IMG/VR virus record: IMGVR_UViG_3300023435_000009
Strand: one strand, 5' to 3'
DNA from: a virus
Taxonomy: Duplodnaviria; Caudoviricetes
DNA: 64,000 nt
How positions within the stretch are numbered: position 1 is the first letter of the stretch; the number at the start of each line of letters is the position of its first letter. Of the stretch, positions 4,574 through 64,000 are shown piece by piece. The notes under the pieces are model-generated. The model searched no databases. It was not told the DNA's origin and saw only the letters and a list, made by a program, of their open reading frames with translations. Made by a program: the position numbers and the translations under genes.

Positions 4574-5444
4574 TCGTATCTCCCGTGTCTATGAGGATCA
4601 TTTGGATGCTCTGGTTGAGTGTGACGTAGGGGTCGGCGTCGACCTTGAAGCCCCTGATCTCGATACAAACACGGCCTCCGAAGGCCAGGGACAAACGGGA
4701 CCGGACGGTGAGGCCCTTGGCGTACTTCCGCACCTCTGTGACCACGTCGGGCGTGGAGACTACCTTGTTCCGCATGTCCTCCGAGGAGAAGAACACGGAA
4801 CCAACGGACCCGTGCGGGTACACCACCGTCAGACCCATTTCTCGGGCAGCTCGACTGAGAAGATACCGGGCGATCCAGAGGTGGTCGGCAACCACCAGGG
4901 CGACAGGAGGCTCCGGGTCGATGTTTGTCGGCAAACTCCGGTACCCCACTTTGAAGTCCCAATGGCCGAGGATGTCATCATGTTGGGCACTGTGGATCAT
5001 GATCCCGGCGTCCACGCACATCGCCAGATGCCTTTCGGCAACGGTTTGGCAGCCCACCTTACTCTGAGGTTCCAGACAGTAGGGCTGGCAAAGGCCCCAC
5101 CAGAATCTGGAGTCCTCCGCAGCGGTGTGTTTCCTGAGGGCTGCTCGTTTGTTGTCGTCTGTTGGAACGTTCTGGGGATCCCGAACCTCACACAGGGCGA
5201 TGAAGCTGGGCTGTGGGCGTACCGGGTCCGGGAGGTAGTGGCAGACGGACAGGATGGTCTGCTCGTCTGAGGCGCTACTTGAGGTAGTCCAGGGTTCCAG
5301 GATCGGAACGTCAGCCCCTTTCCCTGAGGCGACCGGGATCGTGCGGGTTTTGACCCTGGAGGTACCTTTTTCATCTATCCAAACGTAATCGGCAACCCCG
5401 AGACGCTGGTCCTCCCTCCCGGTGATCACACGTAGTCCAGCCAT
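4548..5444 (-). CDS. glutamine synthetase type II-like protein, catalytic residues degenerate
   Basis: ADYVWID..SRVKTRT, DPVRP...LCEV, VADHLWIARYLL, DADPYVT align with the GSII fold; EQEY is replaced by CQPY. Confidence 0.75.
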   Translation of the reverse strand: MAGLRVITGREDQRLGVADYVWIDEKGTSRVKTRTIPVASGKGADVPILEPWTTSSSASDEQTILSVCHYLPDPVRPQPSFIALCEVRDPQNVPTDDNKRAALRKHTAAEDSRFWWGLCQPYCLEPQSKVGCQTVAERHLAMCVDAGIMIHSAQHDDILGHWDFKVGYRSLPTNIDPEPPVALVVADHLWIARYLLSRAAREMGLTVVYPHGSVGSVFFSSEDMRNKVVSTPDVVTEVRKYAKGLTVRSRLSLAFGGRVCIEIRGFKVDADPYVTLNQSIQMILIDTGDTNGKEGRDS

Positions 5445-5470
5445 TGCGCCTCCTGGATCATCCTACCCCG

Positions 5471-6832
5471 TACAGCTTACCTTGATAAGAAGGCTTGTGT
5501 TTTTTGTTTTTCTTTAGTAAACTGCAACCATGGGATTGAGAACTTAAGGTAGCGAAATGATTCGGTCTTCTGCTCATAGCTTGCGGTTTGCAAACCCAGG
5601 TAAGGTGAGATTGGTAGGGGAACTTATCGGAGAGTATCGCCTTTTTGTCCAACGCATTCTAAACGACATATGGGAGAATGGCTTTCCAACGTGGGACTTT
5701 TTCCCAAGCTCAAACAGACTGGATTTCAAAGGCAAGAGCCTTCTACCCACAAAGTACCTCAAGCAGTTCCCAACAGAGATATCAGCAAGGCTTCAACAAG
5801 CTGCTGGTAAACAAGCCGTTATGATGCTCAAGGCAGCCACGGAGAAACGACGGAAACAACTTTTCGTGCTGGCTAACCTTCAGCGAGAAGGTAAGAAGTA
5901 CCAGTACCTCCAGTCAAGGGTTGACCGGCAACCTCTTGTGAAACCGGACGCTTCAGGAATCAATCTGGAACTAGATTCTCGTTTTGTGGGTTTCCAAGAG
6001 ACAGACATCTTTTTGTTTGTTCAACTCTCATCCCTTGGAATCCCACACATTAGAATTCCTATCAAAAAGACCCGTTGCTCTAACAAGTGGCAGACTAGGG
6101 GACTCCTGAAAGTATGTGTTAGGATCTCTGAGGACACACTACATCTAATTTACGAAGTGCCAAACAAAAGCGCCTCAGGAAGTCAGATAGTTGGTGCAGA
6201 CCAAGGTATCACAACTGCGTTGACTCTCTCAAATGGAGAAGCAACCAAACGTTGTCCTCATGGGCATACCCTCCAAACGATCCAAGCAAAACTTGCTCGT
6301 AAGCAAAAGGGGTCGAATGGTTTTCGTCGTACCCAAGAGCATCGCAAGAACTACATCCATTGGTCCTTGAATCAACTCAACTTCAAGGACGTGAAAGAAG
6401 TTCGTTTTGAGAAAATCAAGCATCTCCGCTTATCAAAGCGGAGTTCACGCTATATGTCACATTGGCGCTATACTTTGATCAAAGACAAACTTGTTCGTCT
6501 CTCTGAGGAGGAAGGTTTCCTTTTTCGGGAGGTTGCGAACGAGTTTAGGTCTCAGAGGTGTAGCGAGTGTGGCTGGGTCCGTAAGAGTAACAGGAAAGGT
6601 AAGACGTTCAAATGTGGCAAATGTGGCTTTACCATAGATGCTGATTTGAATGCGGCTTCCAACTTGAAGCTCGATCTCTTTGAGATCCAATGGTGGGTAC
6701 GGCTAAGTCAAATAAATCGTAAAGGGTTCTTTTGGACTTCTGATGGTTTGTTTGACGAAGGGCGGGAGTCTATAGTCCCCGCCACCATAAAAGACAATGA
6801 AAGTAAGAAATTGCTACAACATTGTTGACTAT
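5471..6832 (+). mobile_element. TnpB-only IS200/IS605-superfamily element, family A copy 1
   Basis: 1362-nt segment with a close second copy at 44072-45432; shared ends TAYAGCTTACC...GTTGACTAT (exact ends uncertain by 2-3 nt). Confidence 0.85.
5557..6828 (+). CDS. tnpB: RNA-guided endonuclease TnpB
   Basis: RuvC-I GADQG, RuvC-II VRFEK, Zn ribbon CSECG..CGKCG, RuvC-III DADLNAASNL. Confidence 0.92.
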   Translation: MIRSSAHSLRFANPGKVRLVGELIGEYRLFVQRILNDIWENGFPTWDFFPSSNRLDFKGKSLLPTKYLKQFPTEISARLQQAAGKQAVMMLKAATEKRRKQLFVLANLQREGKKYQYLQSRVDRQPLVKPDASGINLELDSRFVGFQETDIFLFVQLSSLGIPHIRIPIKKTRCSNKWQTRGLLKVCVRISEDTLHLIYEVPNKSASGSQIVGADQGITTALTLSNGEATKRCPHGHTLQTIQAKLARKQKGSNGFRRTQEHRKNYIHWSLNQLNFKDVKEVRFEKIKHLRLSKRSSRYMSHWRYTLIKDKLVRLSEEEGFLFREVANEFRSQRCSECGWVRKSNRKGKTFKCGKCGFTIDADLNAASNLKLDLFEIQWWVRLSQINRKGFFWTSDGLFDEGRESIVPATIKDNESKKLLQHC

Positions 6833-6860
6833 CAGAGTAGATGGTGCAAGGGAGGTGTGA

Positions 6861-7085
6861 ATGAAACGCCCCGACATCCATTTAGATCGTGTTTACGGGA
6901 TCATCCATCAGTGGCGTGTTTGTATTGAGGCGGCGCTTCTGGGGAACACGAAACCACTTGAAGCCGAGTTGCAGGCGCTTCACGACGGGGGCATCCCTTC
7001 AGGCTGTCACGCCCTTACCGCTGCGGACAAGGGCCGTCAGTATCGGTTCCGTGAGGAGAAACCGGACTGGGTAGAGGAGAAGTAA
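6861..7085 (+). CDS. hypothetical protein
   Basis: GGAGG RBS, ATG, short ORF. Confidence 0.55.
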   Translation: MKRPDIHLDRVYGIIHQWRVCIEAALLGNTKPLEAELQALHDGGIPSGCHALTAADKGRQYRFREEKPDWVEEK

Positions 7086-7476
7086 CGTGGTTAAACTTTG
7101 GCCCCTTCCGTGGCGTTGTCCTCATTGCGGGGGCACCCACTGCGACGTACACCCGACCTCTACCGTCGCCCTCACGCTGTACGTCAACACCGGGGACATG
7201 ACGTCCACGACGAGCTATACCGCACACGGGAGCACCCTGACGTGCGGGGCAACCATCACCATCTCCAGCACGAGTAGCGGTAGCACCCATTACGAGATAG
7301 GCGACCCCGTTTCCGAGGTTGACGCACCAGCCCGTCGCAAACTCGTTTATCCTCATCCTCGGGGAAGCCCCCGCCCGACGTTGAAACCGCCGCCACGGAC
7401 CGTTCAGCGGCGTCAGAGAGGACGTTACAACGCACGTCACTGTCCGACCCGACACTTCCATCGAACCTAAATCTGT

Positions 7477-7504
7477 GGGATCATCTCCCCGACCCGCAGA
7501 GTAG
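7477..7504 (+). promoter_or_regulatory. conserved bipartite motif (putative phage promoter)
   Basis: GGGATCATCT-N12-GAGTAG upstream of ORF 7540. Confidence 0.8.
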
Positions 7505-7539
7505 GGTAAGTGAGGAGCAAATGACCCCTGGAGGAAACA

Positions 7540-7767
7540 ATGCTCATCCGAGACGCTATCTGGGCAATCAGGGAAGACCCCACCAAGTGGGTTCGCCCCG
7601 TTGAGTGGCGGGCCAAGTTTTCAGCCATCCGGTGTATCGAGGGTGGGTTGCGACGGTACAATTCTCCCGTAGGACACGAAATCTGCGCCCTCTCCGAGGT
7701 CCGCTACATTACTGGAGAGTGGGAGATCCTCACCGAAGTTCAGGTCGCTGAGATGCTGGAGCACTGA
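7540..7767 (+). CDS. hypothetical protein
   Basis: GGAGG RBS; coupled to the next gene by a TGATG overlap. Confidence 0.6.
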   Translation: MLIRDAIWAIREDPTKWVRPVEWRAKFSAIRCIEGGLRRYNSPVGHEICALSEVRYITGEWEILTEVQVAEMLEH

Positions 7768-12387: not shown

Positions 12388-13889
12388 AGAAGGGGTACTT
12401 GACAGTATCCGACTTACTTGCTAGAGATTAATTATTCCTGCTTGAATCAGGAAGCAGAGGTTAGCAAATGAAGTGTCGCATCTTCCGACTTCACAAGGAT
12501 ACCAATCAGTCCAAGATCGATAAGTTGGAAGCCCTACACAAAGCATACGTCAAGTACGTCCGCATTTGCGTACAAACGATGCTTGACCAGCAGGTCTATA
12601 ATCTCCCGAAAGCCGCCAAACAAACGTTCTTCCCACGGGCCACCAACCTTACGTCCCAAATCGAAAAGATCGCACGAGACCACGCTATCCAAATTGTGAG
12701 CGCTTGGGCCAAAGCCACTTACGCCCGCAAGTTGAAACCGACTATCACCAACCTCAAGCACGAGGGTACCCTCACCGAACAGGACGCCAAAGCACTCTGT
12801 GTCATCGGATTAAAAGCCATCAGTAAGCCCTGGAAGTTTATCACCCAAGACCATCTCGACGCCTACCACACCCTGTTGGACACCTACGGAGGTAATAAGC
12901 CTATCGTAAGGGACAACCTGCCCATGCGGTTGTCGGAGATGACGGCTCGGTTGGAGGACGCATCTAAAGCCCCTCTCGGGGACTTCTGGTTGAGGGTGTC
13001 TTCGTTAGAAGCTCGTAAGTCCGTCTGGTTGCCTCTCGTTGGGAATCTTTACATTCAACAAGCTGATCAGGTCAGCAAAGGGATCTCAGCCCGCAAAACC
13101 AAGCGAGGCTTTTGGCGCTTTGAGGCGGTCAGTAAGGCTGAATGGGTTGTTCCCGAAGCACAGGAAGGTTGGCCTAAGTTGGGCGTTGACGTTGGTCTGA
13201 ACGTCCTTGCAGCTACATCAGATGGAGTGATTTACGGTGAACACGTCAAACCTAAGTTCGACAAACTCTACGCTCGTGTCAGAAATCTTCGAGCAAATCG
13301 CCAACGGCAGGATTTGAAGGATAACAGCCCAAAGTTGGATCACCTTGAGAGCAAATTGAGTGGGTTGATCAAGACAGAGACGGGTCGTGTGGTAAACACC
13401 CTTATCGTTCGTCATCCCGAGACGGTGTTCGTGGTCGAAGATCTCGATCTTCGAGGTTGTAGGGGTCAAAAAAGGTTTGCTTACAGGGCGTTACAGATCA
13501 ACTTGGAAAGGAAAGCTCCAACAAAGAAAGTGAACCCTGCTTACACGTCGCAGGAGTGTCCTTCTTGTGGTTATGTTCATCGAGGAAACCGAAGTTCAAT
13601 AAGGTTCCGTTGCCGCTCGTGCGGCAGGAAAGCTCATGCTGATTGGGTAGGAAGCGCTGGTGTGCTCAGACGTTCTGGAGACGAACACATCAAAGCTAAT
13701 GATCACCCACGAGGCGTAAAACGAGTGCTAAGAGAGCGATTCCGTATTAAGCGGACCAGTTCCTTGGGATTCGGACGGCAAGAGCAACCGTCATCCGAGC
13801 CCTTACCGTTGGGCCGGGAGCTTACTACCGAGGCACTTGGGTTACCAAGGATCGGCACAGCCTCAAACTTGATGCCTGTTACATTCTAG
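12388..13889 (+). mobile_element. TnpB-only element, family B full-length copy
   Basis: 5' region (AGAAGGGGTACTTGACAGTA...ACTTACT...TTCCTGCTTGAA.CAGGA) and tnpB 3' region are shared with the remnant at 63771-64000; ends approximate. Confidence 0.7.
12468..13889 (+). CDS. tnpB: RNA-guided endonuclease TnpB (family B)
   Basis: LGVDVGLN, VVEDL, CPSCG..CRSCG, HADWVG RuvC/Zn motifs. Confidence 0.9.
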   Translation: MKCRIFRLHKDTNQSKIDKLEALHKAYVKYVRICVQTMLDQQVYNLPKAAKQTFFPRATNLTSQIEKIARDHAIQIVSAWAKATYARKLKPTITNLKHEGTLTEQDAKALCVIGLKAISKPWKFITQDHLDAYHTLLDTYGGNKPIVRDNLPMRLSEMTARLEDASKAPLGDFWLRVSSLEARKSVWLPLVGNLYIQQADQVSKGISARKTKRGFWRFEAVSKAEWVVPEAQEGWPKLGVDVGLNVLAATSDGVIYGEHVKPKFDKLYARVRNLRANRQRQDLKDNSPKLDHLESKLSGLIKTETGRVVNTLIVRHPETVFVVEDLDLRGCRGQKRFAYRALQINLERKAPTKKVNPAYTSQECPSCGYVHRGNRSSIRFRCRSCGRKAHADWVGSAGVLRRSGDEHIKANDHPRGVKRVLRERFRIKRTSSLGFGRQEQPSSEPLPLGRELTTEALGLPRIGTASNLMPVTF

Positions 13890-27528: not shown

Positions 27529-28308
27529 TCAGATCACCTGCTGTACGATCTGGACAACCTCGTCGGTTGCAATGAAGCCATTTTCCGCTGCCATGATTTT
27601 CGCCACCCCGCCTGCAGCGAGAATGAAGCCTGTACCCGGCTCCAGGACATAGCTGACGTAGCGGCTGACCGGGAGCATTGACCGCAGGGTGTTCTTGGCG
27701 ATGGTTTTGGGTTTGCTGTTGGGCTCCGGGATTGGACCATTTGGGGCAGGTTCCAGCACCTTGGAATGTGTCTTGAGAGCGTGGAGATAAATGGTTCCCG
27801 GCAAGGCGGCACGGGGTTCTCCCGTACAGTTCCGGCAGTGGCACATCCGGTAGGCTCCATTCCTGTCCCGTGTTCCCTTTACGCAATGATAGACCTTGCT
27901 CCCCCGGACGGTCTCCCCGTCAACCACCAGCGGTTCGAATACGTGACTGTTGGTTGCGGTGCTGTCCGAGGTGTTGTTCCCGGCGAGGCTCCTCTCGAAG
28001 GAGGCAATCAACTCGCCCCGTGCCTGCTCAACGTCCGCTACCGTGATTGTGTGGCCCTCGGCTGCGGCCTTGGTGATCATGTCCGTGGCCCACACGTCCG
28101 GGAGGACATTCAGACTGCGCTGCACGAGGCGATCATAGTGGAACCCCGTAATGAGTGTAACCCAAACCCTTTCATCTCCGTACACGAGACCGCCCCGGAC
28201 CGTTCCCTTTTTTGTGATCTGCAATCCGGTGAAACCAGCGTGAGCCTTTTCGAGCATGACGGCGAGCAGTTTGCTGTTGGCGTTGGTTTTCATCTCGTTC
28301 TCCTTCAG
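27529..28308 (-). CDS. hypothetical protein, paralog of 24657-25475
   Basis: see paralog; extra CHCRNC insert; start uncertain (28308 or 28287). Confidence 0.75.
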   Translation of the reverse strand: MKENEMKTNANSKLLAVMLEKAHAGFTGLQITKKGTVRGGLVYGDERVWVTLITGFHYDRLVQRSLNVLPDVWATDMITKAAAEGHTITVADVEQARGELIASFERSLAGNNTSDSTATNSHVFEPLVVDGETVRGSKVYHCVKGTRDRNGAYRMCHCRNCTGEPRAALPGTIYLHALKTHSKVLEPAPNGPIPEPNSKPKTIAKNTLRSMLPVSRYVSYVLEPGTGFILAAGGVAKIMAAENGFIATDEVVQIVQQVI

Positions 28309-28330
28309 GGTCATTTGCCCCTCACCTCTA

Positions 28331-29523: not shown

Positions 29524-29550
29524 GGATCATCGCTGGGCCGGACAGAGTAG
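29524..29550 (+). promoter_or_regulatory. conserved bipartite motif (putative phage promoter)
   Basis: GGATCATCG-N12-GAGTAG; the upstream box lies in an 11-bp inverted repeat (29506-29535). Confidence 0.75.
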
Positions 29551-29601
29551 ATGGTGTGTTGACAACGGGGATCCCCTGGGGAACCTAAAGGCGGTGGCAT
29601 C

Positions 29602-32526: not shown

Positions 32527-32901
32527 ACTGCCACCCGGTTCAACACATGCATCGGGAACTTGAACTGTTTGCCATCGTCACGGGTGGCGGACACGGGGAA
32601 CTTGGGGCGTCGGGTGCTCAGGCCCACCACCGTGTAGGTGCGTTGCCCCTGTTTGAAGGTTTTGCCGAAACTGTCGGTGGGGACACCCAACATCTGAGCC
32701 GTGCGGGCGAAGGCAGCGGGAACGGCATCGGAGGCACCATCAGCGTGGGCCGTCATCTCCTGGAACTCGAACTTCACGGTAAGCGTGTCCTCACCGTACC
32801 GTCCGCCCCGATAGATGATCTGTATCCCAAGGGCTGCCGCCAGTTCGCTCATCGCTTCCTTCGCTTTCTCCACGATCTGATTCACTTGCGGTTTATCCAT
32901 C
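32523..32901 (-). CDS. hypothetical protein
   Basis: AGGAGG RBS before MDKPQVNQ; follows the motif at 32944. Confidence 0.6.
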
Positions 32902-32943
32902 GTGCCCTCCTGTAGTGGGGTCATTTGCCCCCGTTCACACTGA

Positions 32944-32971
32944 CTACTCCGCCACCCGGCGAGATGATCCC
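32944..32971 (-). promoter_or_regulatory. conserved bipartite motif, left member of a divergent pair
   Basis: GGGATCATCT-N12-GAGTAG. Confidence 0.8.
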
Positions 32972-32982
32972 GCAATGTTACA

Positions 32983-33010
32983 GGGATCATCTGGCGGGCG
33001 TCCAGAGTAG
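32983..33010 (+). promoter_or_regulatory. conserved bipartite motif, right member of a divergent pair
   Basis: GGGATCATCT-N12-GAGTAG, 11 nt from the opposite copy. Confidence 0.8.
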
Positions 33011-44071: not shown

Positions 44072-45432
44072 ATAGTCAACAATGCTGTAGCAATTTCTTG
44101 CTTTCATTGTCTTTTATGGTAACGGGGACTATAGGCTCCCGCCCTTCATCAAACAAACCATCAGAAGTCCAGAAGAACCCTTTACGATTTATTTGACTTA
44201 GCCGCACCCACCATTGGATCTCAAAGAGATCGAGTTTCAAGTTGGAAGCCGCATTCAAGTCAGCATCGGTGATAAAACCACATTTGCCGCATCTGAACGT
44301 CTTACCTTTCCTGTTACTCTTACGGACCCAGCCACATTGGCTACACCTCTGAGACCTAAACTCATTCGCTACCTCCCGAAAAAGGAAACCTTCCTCCTCA
44401 GAGAGACGAACAAGTTTGTCTTTGATCAAAGTGTAACGCCAGTGTGACATATAACGTGAACTCCGTTCACCCCTACGGAGATGCTTGATCTTCTCAAAAC
44501 GAACTTCTTTCACGTCCTTGAAGTTAAGTTGATTCAAGGACCAATGGATGTAGTTCTTGCGATGCTCTTGGGTACGACGAAAGCCATTCGATCCCTTTTG
44601 CTTACGAGCAAGTTTTGCTTGGATCGTTTGGAGGTTATGCCCATGGGGACACGACAGTGTCGTTGCACCATTTGAAAGAGTCAACGCAGTAACTAATCCC
44701 TGGTCTGCCCCAACTATCTGACTTCCTGAAACGTTTTTGTTTGGTACTTCGTAAATTAGATGTAGTGTGTCTTCAGAGATCCTAACACACACTTTCAGGA
44801 TTCCTTTAGTCTGCCACTTGTTGGAGCATCGAGTTCTTTTGATGGGGACTCTAATGTGTGGAATACCAAGGGATGAGAGTTGGACAAACAAAAGATGTCT
44901 GTCTCTTGGAAACTCACAAAGCGAGAGTCTAGTTCCAGATTGATTCCTGAAGCATCTGGCTTAACAAGAGGTTGCCGGTCAACCTTTGACTGAAGTCGTT
45001 TGTACTTGCCACCTTCTCGCTGAAGGTTGGCCAACACGAAAAGTTGTTTCCGTCGTTTCTCTGTGGCTGCCTTGAGCATCATAATGGCTTGTTTTCCAGC
45101 AGCTTGCTGAAGCCTTGCTGACATCCACGTTGGGAACTGCTTGAGATATTTTGTGGGTAAATGATTCTTGCCCTTGAAGTCCAGTCTGTTTGAGCTTGGG
45201 AAAATGTTCCACGCTGGAAACCCCTTCTCCCATATGTCGTTTATGATGCATTGGACAAAAAGGCGGTACTCTCCGATAAGTTCGCCTACCAATCTCACCT
45301 TACCTGGGTTTGCAAACCGCAAACTATGGGCAGAAGACCGAATCATTTAGCCACCTTAAGTTCTCAATCCCATGGTTGCAGTTTACTAAAGAAAAACAAA
45401 AAACACAAGCCTTCTTATCAAGGTAAGCTATA
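44072..45432 (-). mobile_element. TnpB-only element, family A copy 2
   Basis: 1361 nt, collinear with 5471-6832, same ends. Confidence 0.85.
44076..45346 (-). pseudogene. tnpB: frameshifted tnpB
   Basis: the T5 run of copy 1 (6010-6014) is T4 here (44890-44893), splitting the ORF. Confidence 0.85.
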
Positions 45433-46050
45433 CCACCCAGAGGAGTTCTCAGCACCTATGAATATGGCGGAGAGTTCCACGGCACGCCTGATGCGGTCAA
45501 TAGTGTCCTGGATGAGAGCCTTCGCTTTGTCAGACGGTCCTGAAGCGGCCCTGAGAAGGTACGCCGGATGGTAAATCGGCACGATAGGGATCCCACCAGC
45601 CTCATAGATCAGATCCGTTACCTTGAGCAGCGAACCCATCGCACCCCACTGCTGGGACAATTTACTGGTGGCATGCCTTCCCAACGTGATCAGGACTCTC
45701 GGACCGATGGCGGCGATCTGACGTTGGAGGAAGGGGTAGCAAACAGCAACCTCGTCAGGCTGGGGGTCACGGTTCCCCGGAGGCCGACATTTGAGCACGT
45801 TGGCGATGTAACACTCATCCCGTGTCACCCCCGCCCTTGTCAGGAGAACGTCCAGGATGCCCCCCGCACGGCCCACAAAGGGCACTCCCTGCTCATCCTC
45901 GTGTTGACCGGGTGCCTCTCCTACGATCATGATGCGGGCGTTGGGGTCACCGGCTCCGAAGACGACATTATGTCGATCTTTTTGGAGCCTGCATCGGGGG
46001 CAGTTCACCAGGGCTTTCTGGATGTGTTTCAGGGTCTCTTTCGACATCAT
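45418..46050 (-). CDS. udg: uracil-DNA glycosylase family 4
   Basis: CPRC, VGEAPGQHE, FVGRAG, NVLKCRPP, LGRHA, IYHPAYLLR; its stop lies inside the IS left end. Confidence 0.93.
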   Translation of the reverse strand: MMSKETLKHIQKALVNCPRCRLQKDRHNVVFGAGDPNARIMIVGEAPGQHEDEQGVPFVGRAGGILDVLLTRAGVTRDECYIANVLKCRPPGNRDPQPDEVAVCYPFLQRQIAAIGPRVLITLGRHATSKLSQQWGAMGSLLKVTDLIYEAGGIPIVPIYHPAYLLRAASGPSDKAKALIQDTIDRIRRAVELSAIFIGAENSSGWYSLP

Positions 46051-58361: not shown

Positions 58362-59711
58362 TCGACCTTGGGCAGGACAGGCGAATACCGGGTGTTATCC
58401 AGGCACTCACGGAGGAGGGCGTCCAGGGTGGCATCGTTATCCTCGGTGAACTCTACGGCAACAGCGTCCCGCAGGAGTCTGAGGCACTCGGTGATGTTGA
58501 CCACGTGCGGTCCTTGGCGAACCTCCTCCTTGAAGATCTTGCGGAGCATCCATCGTTGGAAACGGGTCATGTCAGCCCTCCTCGATGTCGTCGTTGCCCC
58601 GTCCGGAAAAGCGCTTGCCCTCGTGTATCACGGTCCCAGACGGATCGACATAGATGCGCCCGGTCTGACAGAGGTCCCCGTTCACGGAGATGGTCCTCGG
58701 TCCCCTGACACATACCTCGTGAGCAACCAGCCACGCCTCTATTGCCGTGGCCACCTCCTCGCCCGTAAATTCGATGTTCACACCGGGGCCGAACTCGGTT
58801 TCCCCACTCCCCAGTTGCACCTTCATTGGGACACCTTCACCTTGTGGGTGCTCATCCACCTGGGGCCGTCCTTGTGGTACCCGCCTGTCACGACCTCATA
58901 GTAGCGGTCGCCTGCCTTGATGCGCCCACCCTTATGGTCCTTCCGGGCCGTCCGCACTTTGCTCTGGCGGGAGAAGGTCTCGACCATGAAGCCGAGGTCG
59001 CACCGGCAGTTGTCTTGGGTTTCGTCACAAAAGGCACAACGTGCGCCGTCACCTTCCCCGTCGAAACAACCACACTCGGGGGCGTCGCCATCGGTGTAGT
59101 CATACCATCCGCAATGCGGGCAACGCATCCGGCGGTATCCGTGGTCGTCAGCCCATTGCTCTCTGTCGGTGTGTGTGCTCATCGTGTGTTCTCCTATGCC
59201 TCGGTCAGGATGTCTATGGTCCGATAGGACCCCTTGTTGTCCCACCCTGCGATGGTGCTGATGCTGATGTCGACGTTGCACATGTCGTTGAGGAATTCGA
59301 GAGTGCCGTGCGGACCTTCCCCGCTGTAGCCCCATCCGAATCCCGTGTAGACCATCAGGACAATCTCCTGTATGTCTGTGTCACGATACGCCGCTTCCGT
59401 GCGGTAATCCGAACCATCAGTGTGGAATACCACGGTCTCAGGTATCCCGTAACGGGCCTGCATGTAGCGAGCGTTATCCAAGGAGATGTTGGTCACACCG
59501 CACTCATCCTTGAGGGACTTGGGAACCTTGCGGTTGGCCCGTCTCCAGGAACGGGCAGCAGCCTCGGCTTTCCTTTTGGTCCTCATGGTCACAACACCGT
59601 GGGGAGAGCGGAACTTCCACTCGTGGTCCCGTTCCTTCCACACTTCATAGAGTTCCTTGGTGTGTTTCTTCACGGTGTCTCCCCTGCGGGGTCATTTGCC
59701 CCTCACCCTTA

Positions 59712-59739: not shown

Positions 59740-60052
59740 ACTACTTTGTTTCCCAAGGTCCTCGGGGAAGTCGTTCCTTCCACGAATCCTGGACGGCCTC
59801 GCTCTCGTACTTCCGGCACCCACAAACGAATGCCTCCTCCCCGCTGGGGGAAAGCTCGGTGTGGCCGAAACTGTCCTGGAGCCACCCATGATGGATCAAG
59901 GACCGCCACGTTGCGATGTAGGTCTTTTGCTTGGCCAGGGAGGTGCTAAGGACACGCCTGAGGGCCTGGTACTGACGTTTGGTGGGTTTCAGGTTTTTGC
60001 TTGTGATCGTCATCAAGGTGCTCCTTGCAGGGATCATTTGCCCTCACAAGTA

Positions 60053-63770: not shown

Positions 63771-64000
63771 AGAAGGGGTACTTGACAGTACCCCTCAAAC
63801 TTACTAAAGTCTAATTGTTCCTGCTTGAAACAGGAGGCTGTTATGGCAGGAAGGCTTATGCTGATTGGGTAGGAGGTTCTGGTGTGCCCAGATGTTCTGG
63901 GGGTGAACACATTGGTACTAACGATCACCCACGAGGCGTAAAACGAGTGCTGAGAGAGCGATTCCGTCTTCGACGGACCAGTTCCTTGGGATTCGGACGG
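63771..64000 (+). mobile_element. internally deleted miniature derivative of the family-B TnpB element (runs off the window)
   Basis: left-end hairpins joined directly to sequence homologous to about 13622-13779 of the full tnpB. Confidence 0.85.

Follow-up and report, generated by a model that had tools for sequence, protein, structure and literature searches.

A transposase-less TnpB element splits a promoter-like motif in a huge phage and is predicted to take its guide from the motif

A TnpB element lying in the middle of a repeated upstream motif raises the question of what its RNA-guided nuclease would recognize, i.e., whether its guide derives from the motif, and whether it could act on the uninterrupted site of relatives or on the other copies of the motif. 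The window (the whole stretch of DNA analysed, 64,000 nt) is part of a metagenomic contig of 528,260 bp (JGI 3300025697, Ga0208769_1000001), and the public runs containing its sequence are salt-lake metagenomes. The source genome is that of a huge phage. Genes of the window include DNA methyltransferases, a helicase, RtcB, a LAGLIDADG endonuclease and a deoxynucleoside kinase, and a rIIB-like gene is located elsewhere on the 528-kb contig. No DNA similarity to the window was found among deposited phages.

The motif GGATCATC-N14-AGTAG has 16 exact copies in the window (0.00 expected), with a spacer of exactly 14 nt in every case, and two near copies (at 2182 and 49970). The form given in the original prediction, GGATCATCC-N12-GAGTAG, describes the same 27-nt frame. 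An ORF start follows each of the exact copies (16/16) at 5-52 nt, in the same orientation and with a Shine-Dalgarno in between. Position, orientation, fixed spacing and conservation in a relative (see below), i.e., the features by which a phage promoter was judged, are all found, and the motif is considered as promoter-like on that basis. Several copies are followed by a near-identical leader of the type GTGAGGGGCAAATGACCCC, start codon included (7505-7545, 28290-28330, 32900-32943, 59670-59711 and 60010-60052), thus unrelated genes have the leader and the first codons in common. At 32944-33010 two copies stand back to back on opposite strands, 13 nt apart, and form a divergent promoter pair.

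One further copy is split by the element. The features of this site are the following, all on the + strand:

5455..5462, +: upstream box GGATCATC of the split motif (sequence, motif count and matrix).
5463..5470, +: left part, CTACCCCG, of the 14-nt spacer; its terminal G is also found in the left flanks of element copies 2 and 3.
5471..5473, +: junction trinucleotide TAC, the counterpart of TAT at 6830-6832; whether it is counted with the target or with the element is a 3-nt ambiguity of the register.
5474..5556, +: non-coding left end of the element, without tnpA and with 97% identity to copy 2.
6836..6840, +: AGTAG, the downstream box belonging to the split motif.
6861..7470, +: a pair of small genes, of 74 and 127 aa, which would have been under the control of the split motif; an intact motif copy follows at 7478-7504.

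The flanking sequence is GGATCATCCTACCCCG on the left (5455-5470) and TATCAGAGTAG (TATCAG-AGTAG) on the right (6830-6840); a Shine-Dalgarno and the ATG at 6861 follow on the 3' side. Deletion of 1359 bp (5471-6829 or, equally, 5474-6832) gives GGATCATC-CTACCCCGTA(T/C)CAG-AGTAG with the exact spacing. Any 1359-bp register leads to the same spacing, and the sole ambiguity is the eleventh spacer base (T or C). With a matrix built from the 16 exact copies, the rebuilt site scores 23.2-23.8 bits, to be compared with 6.3 for the best background score in the window and with 14.7 to 48.5 for the leave-one-out scores of the exact copies themselves. The claim that the flanks rejoin to an intact motif when the element is removed is thus confirmed, both by the exact spacing and by 23 bits vs. 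a background maximum of 6. The site had also been described as the 18th copy of the motif: a split copy it is, but the tally was slightly off (17 others were announced, vs. 16 exact and two near copies). The insert (~1.36 kb) has a G+C content of 0.45-0.48 vs. ~0.58 for its surroundings.

Three copies of the element are present on the 528-kb contig, each with different flanks. The homology between copies 1 and 2 extends from 5470/5471 to 6832. Copy 2 is as follows:

44072..45433, -: element copy 2 (90.7% identity); a 1-nt deletion disrupts the tnpB frame.

Copy 3 is intact, lies at ~449.5 kb and also appears on an IMG/VR fragment that comes from this phage or one like it. The junctions (marked ^) are CCCCG^TAC...GACTAT^CAGAGTAG for copy 1, GGTGG^TAT...GACTAT^AGTTCC for copy 2 and GGGGG^TAT...GACTAT^GAAGACG for copy 3. 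TA(T/C) is thus read at both junctions, and a G precedes TA at the three insertion sites (3/3). Contigs of the salt-lake runs provide further right flanks, starting after 6832 or 6833. Judging from at least five different right junctions and from a conservation extending to the whole family, the right end of the element is placed at 6832. Other subfamilies likewise start with TA and end with CTAT. A left-end pattern searched in viral contigs gave two hits, the known copy 3 and a chance match in a coding region; the motif adjacent to the target must thus be deduced from three left flanks. Copies 2 and 3 are not inserted inside promoter motifs. At copy 3 the ATG of the downstream ORF (L143:3770-4190, ~450.8 kb) straddles the right junction, AT coming from GACTAT and G from the flank; by eye, this ORF resembles an HNH endonuclease.

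In copy 1, the insertion site is 28 nt upstream of gene 6861 and the two boxes are now 1359 bp further apart. This separation should inactivate the split motif copy, and it is plausible that the 6861 operon was cut off from the regulon. Since the next motif copy is found at 7478, only the 74-aa and 127-aa genes would depend on the split one.

An uninterrupted counterpart of the site was found through the 298-aa flanking protein, for which a protein search gave a 91%-identical relative on two contigs (L146, from ENA, and L147, from JGI 3300031601). Both have the gene order of the window and lack the element. Their intergenic region reads CCTCCTG-TGATCATC-GTGCCGCTTGTCAG-AGTAG, then 20 nt, then ATGAAACGCCC. 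The motif, TGATCATC-N14-AGTAG, is unbroken, and it is aligned without gap, across the junction, to the rebuilt site of the window; the removal of 1359 bp is thus scarless, i.e., no target duplication is seen beyond the shared core. This site is an ortholog and not an identical empty allele: 6 of the 14 spacer bases differ, the GTAT of the window is replaced by TTGT, and only 9 nt of the predicted guide are matched beyond the box. The expectation that empty sites in relatives keep the spacer length therefore holds for an unbroken ortholog with its 14-nt spacer, whereas the exact empty allele was not found. On L146 (reverse strand, 4185-3660, vs. window 6861-7470) the ortholog of the 74-aa gene is internally deleted and out of frame. 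The 127-aa protein is 100% identical there, vs. only 91% for its 298-aa neighbour, and this jump in identity suggests a recombination boundary.

The exact empty allele (GGATCATC-N11-17-AGTAGATGGTGCAAGGGAGG) was not found in JGI metagenome contigs, nor were relatives of the 298-aa flanking gene in viral contigs. Four salt-lake runs show no joint across the element in the region 5300-7100, on contigs, i.e., in a material from which rare variants would be lost. Identical flanking proteins are found in 40-48 index blocks; for each protein, the 24 longest contigs were read and come down to one or two similar places, where the element is present or the contig breaks inside it. The insertion is thus found in every examined assembly holding the locus. 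It appears old and fixed, in view of the missing empty allele and joining contig, of the ~10% divergence between copies and of the decay of copy 2.

The coding and RNA parts of the element are the following:

5557..6828, +: tnpB, 423 aa, with the RuvC triad D215/E285/D363 and a zinc finger CxxC...CxxC (335/338/353/356).
6672..6832, +: predicted omega-RNA scaffold, wholly in the 3' end of tnpB and ending with GACTAT (conservation, covariation and fold).

The ORF matches Pfam PF07282 (Cas12f1-like TNB domain) with E 4e-13, above the cut-off of this family. Cas12f/TnpB proteins are its best solved relatives (E 2e-14, Cas12f 7wju), and the alignment includes the zinc finger as well as the glutamate of RuvC-II and the aspartate of RuvC-III. 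Among its homologs (757 at E <= 1e-10), an alignment of 30 shows D215, E285, D363, C335, C338, C353 and C356 as invariant. Both the assignment to TnpB and the integrity of the nuclease motifs, as originally predicted, are thus supported: the triad and the four Cys are kept. Copies 1 and 3, which have full 423-aa frames, give a dN/dS of 0.13. No sigma-70-like promoter was detected for tnpB by a simple scan of 5380-6900. A second and unrelated TnpB family is present at 12388-13889 of the window (473 aa, PF07282, E 6e-13), and a miniature derivative of this family lies at 63771-64000, its left end being joined directly to the 3' part (repeat families D7 and D10).

In 46 relatives, the conservation that follows the RuvC-III motif continues past the tnpB stop and ends abruptly at AACTAT (GACTAT here), with random columns beyond. 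The stop is usually 20-40 nt upstream of this conserved end, while here the TGA is inside the terminal TTGACTAT. Four other loci (L114, L022, L095 and L021) likewise have their stop inside the terminal (A/G)ACTAT, which indicates that reading through to the element end recurs in the family. A hairpin at ~6768-6790 keeps its pairing through many double changes (e.g., GC:27/CG:17 at one pair). When the fold of the window is projected on the 46 relatives, the covariation is 0.214 vs. 0.130 for shuffles (0/500 reach the observed value) and no more than 0.137 for slid controls; with RNAalifold, the gappy alignment yields one hairpin only, the other helices being taken from the window's own fold, which favours that structure as regards the cells paired. 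The terminal stem (helix 12) shows double changes at all five of its pairs, and so does the outer part of the long central stem (helix 8). The 161 nt of 6672-6832 have a minimum free energy of -54 kcal/mol (z -4.75). Moreover, the synonymous divergence (dS) of copies 1 and 3 falls to 0.17 over the last 189 nt of tnpB, from 0.44 over the remainder.

A conserved structured RNA at the 3' end of the gene, ending at the right end of the element, is thus present, and its pattern of conservation is the signature of a putative omega-RNA/reRNA scaffold. Searching 5300-7000 against Rfam gave no family apart from a chance miRNA hit; RAGATH-18, the RNA linked to IS607 TnpB (PMC13565253), was not matched. 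In the salt-lake runs, the summed contig depth over 6581-6824 is 3-8x that of the flanks (up to 54.6 vs. ~7). From this raised depth over the omega-RNA region, the 3' scaffold seems common to more element variants of the community than the rest of the element.

In many relatives an ORF is found directly upstream of tnpB and ends in a motif like ...ITSFCARLYGQRR... The two upstream ORFs that were tested are ~190-aa proteins with a Resolvase domain (PF00239, E 1e-18 and 1e-15). Because relatives carry this serine recombinase, the element is classified, from sequence comparison, as IS607-type. None of the three phage copies has a tnpA beside it (only 83-86 nt precede tnpB), hence the element is filed as a transposase-less, non-autonomous derivative, for which excision and new insertion may have ceased. 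The serine-recombinase TnpA next to tnpB is thus a property of the relatives and not of the phage copies. The GG core dinucleotide of IS607 is not found either, the junctions being G^TA(C/T)...GACTAT^ at the three sites. An IS605-type element (Y1 transposase, insertion 3' of a tetranucleotide), the customary model for such elements, was considered and dropped, since relatives encode a serine recombinase. Neither the Y1/HUH transposase nor the subterminal hairpins of IS200/IS605 were found: the left end (5471-5560) has no significant RNA fold, with a z of +0.83, no better than shuffles.

The RNA of IS607 TnpB systems extends beyond the right end into the flanking DNA, and the scaffold includes the fixed base(s) on the right of the crossover (ISXfa1, PMC10711439). 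From this mechanism, and with conservation ending at 6832, C6833 is expected to be the first base of the guide, which would read CAGAGTAGATGGTGCA(AGGG). The features concerned are:

6833..6852, +: predicted guide (16-20 nt), CAGAGTAG plus leader up to the first Shine-Dalgarno bases (deduced with PMC10711439).
29524..29556, +: intact sibling promoter, sharing the first 14 nt of the predicted guide (29543-29556), preceded by CGGA.

The first 8 nt of the predicted guide are those of the motif downstream box and the rest is leader. The guide had previously been given as approximately (TAT)CAGAGTAG...; its start was close, but TAT would belong to the scaffold or core rather than to the guide, the conserved end being at 6832. 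Published IS607 elements have a GG core and adjacent motifs such as GGG, TGGG, AGGAG and GAGGG. Here the adjacent motif is probably G-TA-T, as a guess that three sites cannot fix: copy 1 has CCCCG on its left, which is poorer in G than the GGTGG of copy 2 and the GGGGG of copy 3, and TA(T/C) is found rather than GG. At the right end, the C before TAT (GAC-TAT) would protect the filled site from self-cutting.

As originally reported, the 14-mer CAGAGTAGATGGTG is also present at 29543-29556. The initial 12 nt of the predicted guide are found at just two places of the window, 6833 and 29543, and the other promoter copies have at most 9 nt in common with it. Action on sibling promoters, one of the roles envisaged for the nuclease, is not supported, given the CGGA found at 29524 vs. 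GTA(T/C) at 3/3 insertion sites, and the matches of 9 nt or less elsewhere. The other role, cutting of the empty allele in co-infecting relatives, is not sustained by the sole uninterrupted relative allele, with its 9-nt match preceded by TTGT. The predicted guide appears to have no evident second target in the window, and no current target was found.

Taken together, the data are best explained, with a good degree of confidence, by a non-autonomous IS607-type tnpB/omega-RNA element which split one motif copy and whose guide would come from the downstream box and the leader. The element would have inserted at TA(T) within the 14-nt spacer. Its omega-RNA, if expressed, would have as scaffold the last ~160 nt of tnpB, ending with GACTAT (6832), and as guide the next 16-20 nt, CAGAGTAGATGGTGCAAGGG, i.e., downstream box and mRNA leader of the motif. 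Given the right adjacent motif, probably G-TA-T, in front of the guide sequence, an uninterrupted allele would be cut by this complex. The filled copy would then serve as repair template and the element would be put back, leading either to retention after excision or to homing in co-infection. The retention role has a precedent, as IS607 TnpB promotes transposon retention (10.1101/2023.11.20.567912). Direct observations cover the inserted element with its two ends, its intact nuclease motifs, its conserved RNA structure and the purifying selection on it, as well as the uninterrupted ortholog of the relative; the expression of the RNA, the length of its guide, the adjacent motif, cleavage and the loss of promoter function are inferred.

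Other explanations were weighed against this one. The element may be a fixed and immobile relic, passively carried after the loss of its transposase partner, in which case the promoter-derived guide is a by-product of the landing site and TnpB and its RNA may still be made, without target or role. The presence of the insertion in every examined assembly with the locus, the lack of a joining contig in the four salt-lake runs, the ~10% divergence of the three copies with the frameshift in copy 2, and the lack of an adjoining tnpA all point that way; on the contrary, copies 1 and 3 keep full 423-aa frames with a dN/dS of 0.13, synonymous sites are additionally conserved in the RNA region and all the catalytic and zinc-binding residues are retained, so that the relic is held to be rather unlikely. 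The purifying selection on TnpB and RNA may reflect a current function, for which homing in co-infection is the obvious candidate, or it may predate the insertions, the copies being ~10% diverged (dS ~0.4) and copy 2 frameshifted. A more ambitious proposal, which we consider quite doubtful, is that transposase-less TnpB elements are kept by selection as RNA-guided homing genes: the 5471-6832 copy, with its guide from promoter box and leader, would cut strains with the uninterrupted promoter in co-infection, drive itself and linked genes into them, and might hinder the promoter copies of competitors.

There is very little probability that the element was exapted as an RNA-guided regulator, or as an anti-competitor weapon, acting on the sibling 29524 or on promoters of co-infecting relatives. 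The recurrence of the first 14 nt of the predicted guide at 29543-29556, the identity of its first 8-9 nt with the conserved box of many copies and the published precedent of TnpB-derived transcription factors (TldR, 10.1101/2023.11.30.569447) would fit such a role. Yet the nuclease triad is intact, while in TldR the RuvC catalytic residues are lost; the 29543 match follows CGGA and not the GTA(T/C) of the 3/3 insertion sites; other motif copies match over 9 nt or less; the relative's uninterrupted site also matches over 9 nt, after TTGT; and element copies 2 and 3 are outside promoter motifs. Finally, the motif itself could be another upstream signal, e.g., a regulator binding site, and the insertion would then split an operator-like site. 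Its boxes are unlike sigma-70 hexamers; nevertheless, the place of 16/16 exact copies at 5-52 nt before a co-oriented ORF start with a Shine-Dalgarno between, the invariant 14-nt spacing and the retention of the motif at orthologous places in the relative make this improbable. Such a change would alter the label of the site alone and leave the transposon anatomy unaffected.

With the non-autonomous IS607-type element retained as the preferred explanation, the locus is a known kind of element and brings no new mechanism; in other respects current models would predict the same biology for any TnpB insertion. Its interest is that of a natural case where (i) the filled site, (ii) the uninterrupted ortholog, (iii) the element ends and (iv) the RNA scaffold are all in hand, for an RNA-guided transposon nuclease whose predicted guide comes from a regulatory motif of a huge phage. 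It is thus a concrete substrate for asking whether TnpB-only elements act as phage homing genes.

The comparison with known systems can be drawn as follows. Like the free-standing homing endonuclease genes of T-even phages (PMC13565253), the element is a selfish nuclease gene in an intergenic position of a large phage and could spread in co-infection; a LAGLIDADG gene is also found in the window. Unlike them, recognition would be by RNA, and a recipient allele with a matching target was not found. Like TldR (10.1101/2023.11.30.569447), it encodes a phage-borne TnpB relative whose predicted guide matches a promoter region; however, its RuvC triad is intact and the guide matches its own insertion site, as for any transposon copy, and not a host promoter.

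As in ISDra2 and the IS200/IS605 TnpB systems (PMC8612924; PMC10055086), the guide would be the DNA adjoining the right end, and, as for ISDra2, the proposed role is the cutting of the empty site so that the element is copied back. The differences are the serine recombinase of the relatives instead of a Y1 transposase, the left end without significant hairpin and, for ISDra2, a weak similarity of the phage TnpB (E 0.01).

The closest correspondence is with IS607 elements (ISXfa1, PMC10711439; the C. botulinum IStron, 10.1101/2023.11.20.567912): the small serine recombinase of the relatives is directly upstream, the structured RNA overlaps the 3' end of tnpB and reaches the right end, removal is scarless apart from a short sequence shared by the junctions, and two of the three left flanks are G-rich. 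The three phage copies differ from them by the lack of tnpA and by a scaffold wholly inside the ORF, whose stop codon is part of the terminal motif. They also differ by the shared bases, TA(T/C), with a right end CTAT, whereas the GG core of IS607 is described as strict. The case also points to a subfamily of IS607 type, numbering hundreds of members in metagenomes, in which the ends are TA...CTAT rather than GG.
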